Positions 55,113-58,294 of a stretch of 64,000 nt of DNA are shown one piece after another. The position numbers were made by a program, and so were the translations under genes. The stretch comes from an uncultured delta proteobacterium (GTDB lineage: Bacteria > Desulfobacterota > Binatia > UBA9968): assembly GCA_963745835.1 (NCBI GenBank), contig CAVUZH010000019.1:192001-256000 (forward strand). The letters are read 5' to 3'. The notes under the pieces are model-generated. The model did not search any database. It was not told the DNA's origin and was given only the letters and a program-made list of their open reading frames with translations. How positions within the stretch are numbered: the stretch's first letter is position 1; each line of letters opens with the position of its first letter.

Positions 55113-55444
55113 AGATCACCTCCGGTTTGTCTATCGTGACAAATGACGATCACTTGAAATAATACCACCTGATCAGGGCCAAAATGCAATTGAGAAAATC
55201 AGAGCAATACGGCAATACGGCGATGGCCTGCGGAATGATCGGATTTTCCGGCGCTCTGACCTTGACGACATGGCGAGACGGACAAACCCAAAGGTCGAAA
55301 TACAAAACATGACCTCGACGCTAGTGGTCAGGTGTTTGTGCCGCCAAGAGACGTAACCAGAGCTCGCTTTGGGTGGACTAGGCAGATCGCCCGACGGGTG
55401 ATAAGAACGTTAATATTCAGACCAAAATACGGGAGGTAAACACA

Positions 55445-56050
55445 ATGGCCGACTTAAAACTCGGAACGAAGGTGTCGGATTTTGAGCTCGAAACGTACGA
55501 GCCGACGAAAGGCGACTTTGGCAAGTTCAGCATGCAGGACCAGATCAAGAACAAACGCTGGACTATCCTCTTCTTCTATCCCGCGGATTTCACGTTCGTC
55601 TGAGCGACCGAATTCGCTGCTCTGGCAGAGCAGCACGATCGCTTCGTCAAAATGGGCTGCGACATCGTCACGGTGAGCATGGACACCAAGTTCGTGCACA
55701 AGGCGTGGCAGGAGAACGAAAAGGAGCTGGCCAAGGTCAAGTACCCGATGGCGAGCGATCCGACCGGCAAGGCCGCGCGGATGTTCGGCGTCTACGACGA
55801 GGACACCGGGCTTGCGCTACGCGGGACCTTCATCATCAATCCCCAGGGCGTCCTGATGAACGCCGAGACCAACTTCTACAATCTTGGCCGCAACATTGAT
55901 GAGCTCATGCGAAAGTACAAAGCGAACATCTATCTCTCCAAGAAAGCCGACGAGGCCTGCCCTTCAAAGTGGAAGGACGAGGGAGACAAGACCCTCACCC
56001 CGTCGGCAAAAATGGTGGGCAAAGTGCACGAGGCGCTGCAGCAGAAATAG
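55445..56050 (+). CDS. prxU: Selenocysteine-containing peroxiredoxin (AhpC/Prx1 type), U53
   Basis: GGAGG RBS then ATG 55445: MADLKLGTKVSDFEL...FFYPADFTFV[TGA 55601-3]ATEFAAL...LRGTFIINP...EACPSKW...TAG. The TGA is exactly at the PxxxTxxC peroxidatic Cys position. Confidence 0.92.
55601..55644 (+). promoter_or_regulatory. Bacterial SECIS-like hairpin
   Basis: Perfect 8-bp stem GCTGCTCT (55616-23)/AGAGCAGC (55627-34) with a GGC loop, after a 12-nt spacer from the UGA; lower stem GCGACCG/CGATCGC has one mismatch. Confidence 0.8.
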
Positions 56051-56238
56051 CTGTTTTCTCGTTTTTTCAAAAGTGATTGGGCTAGCGAAGCTCGGGGTCG
56101 GATCTTTATTTTTCACGTTCCAGAGGAAAAAAAGATTCTGCGACCAGGGCGAGCGGTTAAGAAGGCGGTCAGAGAACCGCTGCGTTGTGATGGACAAAGT
56201 CGCCGGCTGGTGTTTCACGTCCGTACAACATGAATAAT

Positions 56239-56451: not shown

Positions 56452-58158
56452 TTAACTTGTAACCTCGGAGCTCTTGCGGCGGGTGTTTGGCGAGCCGCTC
56501 GCCGATAACAAGCGACTCTCGTCACTGATGGCGTACACAATCAGCGGTTCCCGGCGATTCCTGACGTTAACCTGATGCCGCGGCGAACTCTGCATTTCGA
56601 TTCCGGCCCGTGTGGCGACCTGCTCGGAAATAACAAGTGCGCAGTCGTATTCTTTCGTTAGCTCCTGCAGCCTACTTGCGACGTTCACCGTGTCGCCCAC
56701 GGCAGTAAGATAAGTCCCCATACCATAGCCCATCTGTCCAACCACTGAAGGTCCGGTGTGGATGCCAATGCCTACCTTAAGAGATGACTCTAGTTCCTCG
56801 GAAAGCATATCGCTGAGCTGCGCAACGCTGCTGAGAATCTCGCGCGCTGCTGCGAGCGCGGACTGGCATCCCTGCACCGGCCCCGTCTGGACTCCGAACA
56901 GGGCCATGAGGCCGTCGCCCGTGAATTGGTTCGGCATCCCTCCCGCGCGTTCGACCGCGGTGCCAACAATTTCGGCATAGCGGTTTAAGATGAAGACCAG
57001 ATCATACGGCAATTTGCGTTCTGCTATGGTGGTGAAAGAACGAAGATCCGCAAACAGCACAGCCATGTCGCATTCTTGCCCCGCCAGGTAGGAAGGCTTA
57101 ACGAAACCGTCGCTTGCATTTGCGTCTGCGGGAAGCAAAGGCACGATGGAAATATCGCTCGTCGGTTGCAGCTGACAGGCCAACCGCACATTGGCCGGCG
57201 CGCCGATGCGGGCGAGCACTTTCAGTTCCGCCGGGCTTGGCATGGGGACAGATTCCAATCCTTTAATTATGCGAATTCTACAGGTGGAACACCGGCCCCG
57301 TCCGCCGCACACGGACGCATGAGGAATGCGCGCAAAACGGCTCGCTTCCAGGACTGTGAACCCGCGCGGCACCTGCACCGGACGGTTGTCCGGATAGGTG
57401 ATTTGAATTCTGCCTGGGCGTTCGAAGACATGGCGCGCCGCGCGCGCCACCAACACCGCACCAAGACATGCCCAAAACCCATAGATAATTCCATCACGCA
57501 GATTGACCAGGTCTTCGCCCTGGCCAGGGCGCAAAACGTTGGTTCGCTGATAGAGCTGCTCGATCCACTCGGGATTGCGGGCGATAAGATAATCAACTTC
57601 ACGCCCGGCCTGGACGAAGCCAAGCAACGCGAACACCGGCAGCAGCAGTACAAGCGCATAGAGCGCCGCGGCGTAGCGCGGATACCATGGCCGCAGCCTG
57701 AGCCAAAAGTACAGGCCGATACATCCATGCGTCCACGCGATCAACACCAACGAGGCTTGGCGCAGGCCGTTGATCGGATTCTGGCGCCACAAGCTCAACA
57801 CGGTCTTGGCGTACATGTCTTCGATGCCGTACCACTCGTAAGCCATGCGGGTGCCGACGAAATGAGTTGCCAGCAGCAGCGGTATGCACAAGCCAAGCGT
57901 GAGCTGGAGCGCCTCCCAAAACGGCATACGCAGGTGCCGTCGTTGATAAATCGCGTAGAGCGCCAAACTGAAATGGGTCAGGAGCGAGCCATAGAAGACC
58001 GAGGTGCCCAAAGGATTGCGCCACAGAGCCAGAAACCATGTGCGGCCGGCTTCCATGGCATCGAGCGAAATCAATCCGAGAGAATGATTGAGCAGATGGG
58101 TGGTGAGATAAGTAAACAGCACCAGACCCGTGGCGATCCGCGTGCGCCGAATGTTCAT
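56452..58158 (-). CDS. Class III adenylate/guanylate cyclase with His-rich 4-TM domain and 2Fe-2S ferredoxin (CyaC-like)
   Basis: TM His residues (THLLNH, THF, THF, THG); CGGRGRCSTC...RLAC; FADLRSFT, TGDGLMA, GIGIHTG and GDTVNVASRL motifs. Confidence 0.9.
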   Translation of the reverse strand: MNIRRTRIATGLVLFTYLTTHLLNHSLGLISLDAMEAGRTWFLALWRNPLGTSVFYGSLLTHFSLALYAIYQRRHLRMPFWEALQLTLGLCIPLLLATHFVGTRMAYEWYGIEDMYAKTVLSLWRQNPINGLRQASLVLIAWTHGCIGLYFWLRLRPWYPRYAAALYALVLLLPVFALLGFVQAGREVDYLIARNPEWIEQLYQRTNVLRPGQGEDLVNLRDGIIYGFWACLGAVLVARAARHVFERPGRIQITYPDNRPVQVPRGFTVLEASRFARIPHASVCGGRGRCSTCRIRIIKGLESVPMPSPAELKVLARIGAPANVRLACQLQPTSDISIVPLLPADANASDGFVKPSYLAGQECDMAVLFADLRSFTTIAERKLPYDLVFILNRYAEIVGTAVERAGGMPNQFTGDGLMALFGVQTGPVQGCQSALAAAREILSSVAQLSDMLSEELESSLKVGIGIHTGPSVVGQMGYGMGTYLTAVGDTVNVASRLQELTKEYDCALVISEQVATRAGIEMQSSPRHQVNVRNRREPLIVYAISDESRLLSASGSPNTRRKSSEVTS

Positions 58159-58294
58159 AAGTTGCGCCAATCTACTACGAGGCAAGCATGGCGTCTATGC
58201 GCCGCAAGCGCGGGTGATTGGCACCCGCGATAGGGAGCGCCTGTGAAAGACCCAGTGGGTGAGCAAGCACCGCAACTGCCGATCAGCGTGCAAT

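Follow-up and report, generated by a model that had tools for sequence, protein, structure and literature searches.

A peroxiredoxin gene split at an in-frame UGA in an uncultured Binatia bacterium: comparative evidence for an AhpC/Prx1-type enzyme with a putative peroxidatic selenocysteine

Two short open reading frames in a genome fragment of an uncultured bacterium of the Binatia raise a simple question: are they the remains of a peroxiredoxin gene broken by a stop codon, or the two halves of one working gene in which UGA is read as selenocysteine (Sec)? The whole stretch of DNA that was analysed, here called the window, comprises 64,000 nucleotides (C19:192001-256000 of the source assembly G000, which has 7.28 Mb in 25 contigs, is 97% complete and carries 9.3% estimated contamination). 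In a table-11 ORF listing the gene is cut into a 52-aa ORF (55445-55603) and a 132-aa ORF (55652-56050), while translation with TGA as U gives a single 201-aa plus-strand frame (55445-56050, terminal TAG at 56048-56050 included) that reads ...YPADFTFVUATEF... and contains zero other stops. An earlier note, written from the letters alone, had proposed a Sec/Cys peroxiredoxin at this place, and its account of the layout holds: a Shine-Dalgarno-like GGGAGG, read off the sequence at 55431-55436 (+), lies 8 nt 5' of the ATG at 55445; 201 codons with one in-frame TGA, codon 53 (55601-55603), continue into the 132-aa ORF without a frameshift; and the resolving Cys is kept, as residue 172 (codon TGC, 55958-55960) in EACPSKW. 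We consider it very probable that 55445-56050 forms a single intact gene encoding an AhpC/Prx1-type 2-Cys peroxiredoxin, with a peroxidatic Sec specified by UGA and decoded through a 3' hairpin and SelB.

The gene is flanked in the window by divergent minus-strand ORFs; the downstream one (577 aa, 56452-58185, minus strand, convergent with prx) presumably carries, as judged by eye, multiple hydrophobic segments near its N-terminus together with a CGGRGRCSTC ferredoxin-like motif, and has a C-terminus resembling class III nucleotide cyclases. Flanking ORFs at 78 genome loci, 146 in all, showed no conserved synteny, the biggest cluster having 6 members. A promoter scan of the region returned one site with 0.9 expected, which is chance level, and a terminator scan returned two with 1.6 expected by chance, which is not significant; a weak terminator-like hairpin with a T-rich tail (5 pairs, 3 of them G-C) spans the stop codon at 56038-56064 (+) and is an uncertain assignment.

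The protein carries an AhpC-TSA domain (PF00578, E = 2.5e-36, residues 7-137, 124.8 bits against a Pfam cut-off of 26), and among solved structures it lies closest to AhpC from Salmonella typhimurium and E. coli (PDB entries including 1yf1, 1yf0 and 4o5r; E = 3e-49, residues 7-194). The peroxidatic Cys of FTFVCPTE is the counterpart of U53, and in the AhpC chains 1yf1/1yf0 Cys172 is matched by the Cys in EVCPAKW; the Thr of DFTFV and the Arg of L-x-R-G/A-T-F align as well; unlike AhpC, the present protein has a putative Sec in place of the Cys, and Ala in place of the Pro that follows. The peroxidatic motif, P46-A-D-F-T50-F-V-U53, conforms to PxxxTxxU, with Cys forms among the homologues, and the resolving Cys lies in a (V/A)CP motif about 120 residues past the peroxidatic residue. 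Because both redox residues align with those of AhpC, we regard the protein as a typical 2-Cys peroxiredoxin with a putative Sec at the peroxidatic position.

The gene belongs to the established Sec-peroxiredoxin (TxxU) family and is not a new kind of system: it combines the PF00578 domain, a peroxidatic UGA in PxxxTxxU, widespread Cys homologues, a candidate SECIS directly 3' of the UGA and a host with Sec machinery. It does not differ in kind from other members; the present clade reads U-A-T-E-F-A-A-L-A-E-Q. The family is described in the part of a 2026 review that we compared, where Prx (PF00578, TxxU) stands among the experimentally verified prokaryotic selenoproteins, the PxxxTxxU motif is given and PrxU of Eubacterium acidaminophilum is cited (PMC13188914, citing Sohling et al. 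2001); Table 1 of an earlier survey counts 12 Sec-Prx in genomes (PMC1794560). In the passages compared, nothing specific to this clade or to the Binatia was found.

The earlier note had called the protein class known and had given PrxU as the name of Sec-peroxiredoxins in some anaerobes; the first part stands through TxxU family membership, and the second calls for a correction. The best NCBIfam models are AhpC (TIGR03137, 195.6 bits, cut-off 272) and PrxU (NF040737, 177 bits, cut-off 270), and the protein misses both equivalog cut-offs. PrxU, which NCBIfam names thioredoxin-dependent, is likewise a Sec peroxiredoxin of AhpC/TSA fold, and the match to its profile has E = 4.7e-52 over residues 4-198; the present protein differs in covering profile positions 36-229 of 233, without the first ~35 positions. 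By these profile comparisons, the protein is best placed in a separate AhpC/Prx1-like clade inside the wider Sec-Prx family and outside the PrxU equivalog.

The hairpin described in the earlier note, 8 bp and perfect with a loop that starts with G, is found at 55616-55634 (+): a stem GCTGCTCT (55616-55623), a GGC loop (55624-55626) and a stem AGAGCAGC (55627-55634), separated from the UGA by a spacer of 12 nt (55604-55615) and coding for A-A-L-A-E-Q plus the first base of a His codon. The MFE fold and the centroid fold both have it at their core; the extended lower stem of the MFE fold was considered and dropped, as it is not conserved and RNAalifold keeps only the 8 apical pairs. A 71-nt single-sequence fold shows no excess stability (z = -0.74; 47 of 200 shuffles were equally stable), so the case for a hairpin beyond chance rests on comparative data. 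An Rfam scan of 55300-56200 with E up to 10 found no SECIS family, and its four hits all fall far short of their gathering scores. The SECIS of E. coli fdhF is a hairpin within the coding sequence, about 11 nt 3' of the UGA, with an apical loop that starts with G. The present hairpin resembles it in lying in the CDS at a short fixed distance from the UGA and in its G-first loop, and differs in sequence, in its 3-nt loop and in having no bulged U.

Comparison of orthologues supplies this evidence. Synonymous codon use was analysed in 138 unique 210-nt segments drawn from 152 full-length TGA forms, and the six hairpin codons, +5 to +10 relative to the UGA, are nearly fixed: GCT in 135/137, GCT in 137/137, CTG in 138/138, GCA in 136/137, GAG in 137/137 and CAG in 137/137. 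Their synonymous entropy is 0-0.11 bit, compared with mostly 0.6-2.1 bit in degenerate codons elsewhere in the segment, among them the neighbouring codons Ala+1, Thr+2, Glu+3, Phe+4 and Arg+13; the other Ala, Thr, Glu and Arg codons there use two to six synonymous codons each, and GCT and GCA are rare Ala codons in the rest of the gene. The RNAalifold consensus of 130 distinct 57-nt sequences consists of exactly these 8 pairs and nothing more. Of 1040 cells, 99.0% are paired; sliding the 3' partner by 1-3 columns lowers this to 12.8-63.2%. Covariation is minimal: a single compensatory C-G to A-U change (L049) occurs among the 130 sequences, and the closing pair undergoes G-C to G-U changes. 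Our alignments thus show a hairpin that is constrained at the RNA level, and it is the invariance of synonymous sites, not covariation, that supports this constraint.

A frame split under table 11 is also what would be seen in a pseudogene, that is, a dead peroxiredoxin whose Cys codon had mutated to TGA, and the distribution of the TGA bears directly on this explanation. Matches at E <= 1e-30 were found in 11 of 41 relatives, and the close orthologues in G004, G001 and G014 (96%, 97% and 81% identity) each have one TGA, at the same codon and followed by A-T-E. Among 401 sampled genomes of the phylum, 37 have a match at E <= 1e-45; 29 further loci from this sample divide into 6 that read U-A-T-E (L042-L046 and L049) and 23 with Cys followed by Pro or Ser. 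A one-genome-per-species scan yielded 80 loci, of which 78 have TGA-GCN and the hairpin, one (L136) is a Cys form and one (L142) has no recognisable motif; a metagenome scan seeded with the Cys-form protein P0002 yielded another 80, comprising 72 TGA forms and 8 Cys-Ala forms. In the pooled set the motif is present in 177 of 182 scanned loci, 154 of them TGA-Ala and 23 Cys forms, and the hairpin retains at least 7 of its 8 pairs in all 154 TGA-form loci; a looser motif added 4 TGA loci beyond the 154. Two entries, L071 and L072, apparently duplicate the contigs of L022 and L023. The comparison of orthologues proposed in the earlier note therefore came out in its favour: both the codon position of the TGA and the spacing to the hairpin are preserved, and the remaining homologues have Cys there.

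The TGA forms are also spread widely. The MAGs that carry them are labelled Binatia, Methylomirabilota/Rokubacteria/NC10, Acidobacteriota (including Terriglobia, Vicinamibacteria and Thermoanaerobaculia) and Nitrospirota/Thermodesulfovibrionia, with at least six phyla overall; single MAGs are labelled Gemmatimonadota, Verrucomicrobiia, Planctomycetia and Desulfobacterales, labels that may be binning errors. In the Cys-Ser forms L050, L051, L053, L056 and L058, a short Cys-rich stretch (e.g. ...DEDCCCG...) is encoded in the frame directly upstream of the conserved VGQ with which the domain begins, and may be part of the N-terminus of C-S-T-E peroxiredoxins.

Against a pseudogene stand the same TGA in 154 + 4 orthologues, down to about 57-66% identity, the conservation of both halves at the protein level, orthologues free of other stops, frameshifts or relaxed constraint after the TGA, a hairpin invariant at synonymous sites and the presence of Sec machinery. 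One metagenome copy may really be broken: in the TGA form L207, a CAG to TAG change in the 3' arm of the hairpin turns a G-C pair into G-U and creates an in-frame amber stop. This could reflect true gene decay, an error in sequencing or another cause. For the gene in the window, we judge decay to a pseudogene very improbable.

The earlier note had also asked whether the TGA could be a misread TGC or TGT. Four sequencing runs, each from a separate study, give Logan contigs that span 55601-55603 with the TGA unchanged: X1 and X8 are DNA runs, and X15 and X16 are metatranscriptomes. These are assembled contigs rather than raw reads; contig records 4 and 20 show zero differences from the window, and the 3 differences in record 25 and 4 in record 9 all lie at other positions. 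Congeneric MAGs carry the same TGA. A sequencing or assembly error at this codon is accordingly the most improbable of the explanations weighed here, to the point of being negligible. The X15 and X16 contigs indicate presence in RNA libraries, not proven transcription or translation.

If the UGA is read as Sec, the host must be able to make and insert it, and the earlier note had predicted that selA, selB, selC and selD would be encoded. All four are present in G000: a tRNA-Sec (74.2 bits; called SeC with anticodon tca by ARAGORN), selA (608.6 bits), selB (394.3 bits) and selD (383.4 bits), with selA, selB and selD (L009, L010 and L018) mutually adjacent at C22:65479-70161. The selD gene has an in-frame TGA of its own (...KAAGUAAKLGP...) and is of the Sec type; the Ala codon after its UGA is GCC, and the hairpin downstream is a different one, without a G-first loop in the MFE fold. 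Because the Sec genes sit on contigs C22 and C13, not on the contig of the window, the 9.3% estimated contamination is a caveat on this assignment. Among five other genomes with a TGA orthologue, selA is above cut-off in five and selB in four, the exception being G001, which is 84% complete; in G063, selB and prx share a contig. The Sec/Cys peroxiredoxin reading of the earlier note is thus supported by the machinery, by the conserved TGA and hairpin and by the TGA in independent contigs.

G000 also contains, outside the window, four more peroxiredoxin-like thioredoxin-fold ORFs with an in-frame TGA at the redox position: L038 (C15:231441-231878), L039 (C14:457061-457438), L040 (C3:958171-958545) and L041 (C14:479622-479966). 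Their redox motifs are WTPTU, FSPTU (twice) and FTGGU, and some hairpin lies 3' of the TGA in each. The organism appears to be rich in selenoproteins. A further TGA, near a gene resembling that for thioredoxin reductase, was considered as a Sec codon; with its position at residue 2 of the match, it is more likely to be simply the upstream stop.

It may also be asked whether the UGA is decoded as something other than Sec, or not as Sec alone: near-cognate read-through could insert Trp or Cys, translation could terminate when selenium is scarce, and the hairpin could mainly tune the yield of a 52-aa peptide relative to the full-length protein. Termination competes with Sec insertion in all bacterial systems, which lends this explanation some plausibility. 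However, Trp at the peroxidatic position would inactivate the enzyme; the 52-aa fragment amounts to less than half a thioredoxin fold; and SelB-dependent Sec insertion is consistent with the geometry of the hairpin, with a loop that starts with G and with the presence of selA and selB in genomes that carry the gene. The genetic code is standard as well: among the window's frames that span 250 codons or more between stops, 22 of 41 end in TGA, the commonest stop there, which excludes a code in which TGA is a sense codon. We take these alternatives together to be improbable, though less so than a pseudogene or a sequence error, and the catalytic residue is almost certainly selenocysteine.

How would such an enzyme be made and work? 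We propose that SelB-GTP-Sec-tRNA(Sec) binds the 8-bp GGC-loop hairpin 12 nt past UGA-53 and delivers Sec to the ribosome, where termination would otherwise occur. In the folded protein, the selenolate of Sec53 would attack H2O2 or an organic hydroperoxide and be oxidized to a selenenic acid, which Cys172 of the partner subunit would resolve to a selenenylsulfide; this would most likely be reduced by thioredoxin and thioredoxin reductase. We favour this reductant because no AhpF partner reaches its cut-off in the genome, a difference from the AhpC of Salmonella typhimurium and E. coli: the best hit in G000 scores 209 bits (cut-off 503) and covers only the half that resembles thioredoxin reductase. 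Thioredoxin reductase itself scores 418 bits in G000 (cut-off 343), and the gene neighbourhoods, which share no synteny, give no hint of a different partner.

The residue after the putative Sec calls for a separate remark, as the earlier note had singled out the change from Pro to Ala in U-A-T-E. Proteins without Sec have it too: among the 120 best-matching full-length homologues from the database, at 61-74% identity, 116 have C-A-T-E. Since Cys-form relatives share it, the Ala is a signature of the clade, as judged from these alignments, and so is the F-A-A-L-A-E-Q stretch. A strict coupling of Sec to Ala is ruled out by the abundant Cys-Ala forms and by another Prx clade that reads FVUPTE. 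That second type of Sec-Prx, with Pro retained, occurs in the same family of genomes, at L027 (G011:C28) and L028 (G015:C113), which read FTFVUPTE and have a hairpin, CTCCGACA-ggt-TGTCGGAG, 20 nt past the TGA that differs from the hairpin of the main clade.

The Cys forms within the clade raise the question of which residue came first. Among nine Cys-Ala loci, six (L136, L206, L223, L225, L227 and L228) use other codons for AALAEQ or a closely similar peptide and have lost the hairpin, with 3-4 of 8 pairs left, which makes Cys-Ala forms a natural control for the constraint on the RNA; three from metagenome contigs (L151, L217 and L219) have TGT or TGC and the full 8-bp hairpin; the latter look like relic SECIS elements left after conversion of Sec to Cys. 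In a FastTree phylogeny of 216 rows (176 loci plus one in three of the 120 database proteins, after removal of rows whose flanks were short), proteins reading x-A-T-E-F-A-A-L-A-E-Q form one clade (support 98) in which Cys-Ala lineages are basal; a 173-leaf subclade is mostly Sec with about eight nested Cys-Ala groups, and at least 10 Sec/Cys changes are needed. A quick IQ-TREE analysis of 94 rows, with 12 motif and hairpin columns removed, needs 9. The root is not established in either tree, and neither fixes the direction of change at the base of the clade. L151, with TGT and an intact hairpin, is nested beside the TGA forms L084, L152 and L153 (support 95), a placement that suggests that Sec was recently replaced by Cys and that the SECIS survives as a relic.

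A pair of loci outside the main clade bears on the same question. L049 (G042:C1) has TGA-GCA (Sec-Ala) and L048 (G088:C9) has TGT-CCA (Cys-Pro); they come from two species of one genus, their proteins are 96% identical, they differ here at two adjacent bases, and they have in common a hairpin, GCTGATCT-ggc-AGATCAGT, identical to that of the main clade except for a compensatory change in one pair. Both FastTree and IQ-TREE place them outside the main clade (support 98 and 74), whereas a position as sister to that clade is not rejected by an AU test (p = 0.406). The order is represented by these two genomes only; with selA and tRNA-Sec in both, the direction cannot be read from loss of the trait. 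It could be that Sec arose independently in the L049 lineage, with convergence both on the SECIS design of the main clade and on its Pro-to-Ala change; if so, the residue after Sec would be functionally constrained. As an established event such an origin was set aside, since joining the pair to the main clade is not rejected by the AU test.

It is possible, although we lean somewhat against it, that Sec and the near-invariant 19-nt SECIS are ancestral in this Prx clade, and that Cys forms arose repeatedly and recently; L151, L217, L219 and L048 would then, as part of the same tentative reading, be Cys forms with an intact relic SECIS. If true, this would run opposite to the Prx conversions in the one table compared from the 2006 survey, which gives 0 Sec-to-Cys and 5 Cys-to-Sec (PMC1794560, Table 1).

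In conclusion, our analysis identifies a member of an enzyme family that is already known and is common in soil bacteria, and its main value is for annotation, as a correct annotation rescue. The expectation of the earlier note that annotation would easily miss the gene is confirmed by public protein collections, where the 132-aa and 52-aa pieces are separate entries, in 90%-identity clusters of 133 and 110 members, respectively, named AhpC, peroxiredoxin or redoxin domain-containing protein. A detector built on the near-invariant signature TGA GCN ACN GAR, one more codon and then GCTGCTCTGGCAGAGCAG would be simple and specific, and the relic hairpins in Cys forms would provide a small, clean data set on the direction of Sec/Cys exchange. 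As gene callers routinely split the gene, the enzyme, and with it the dependence of peroxide defence on selenium, is systematically under-counted in common lineages of soil and sediment.
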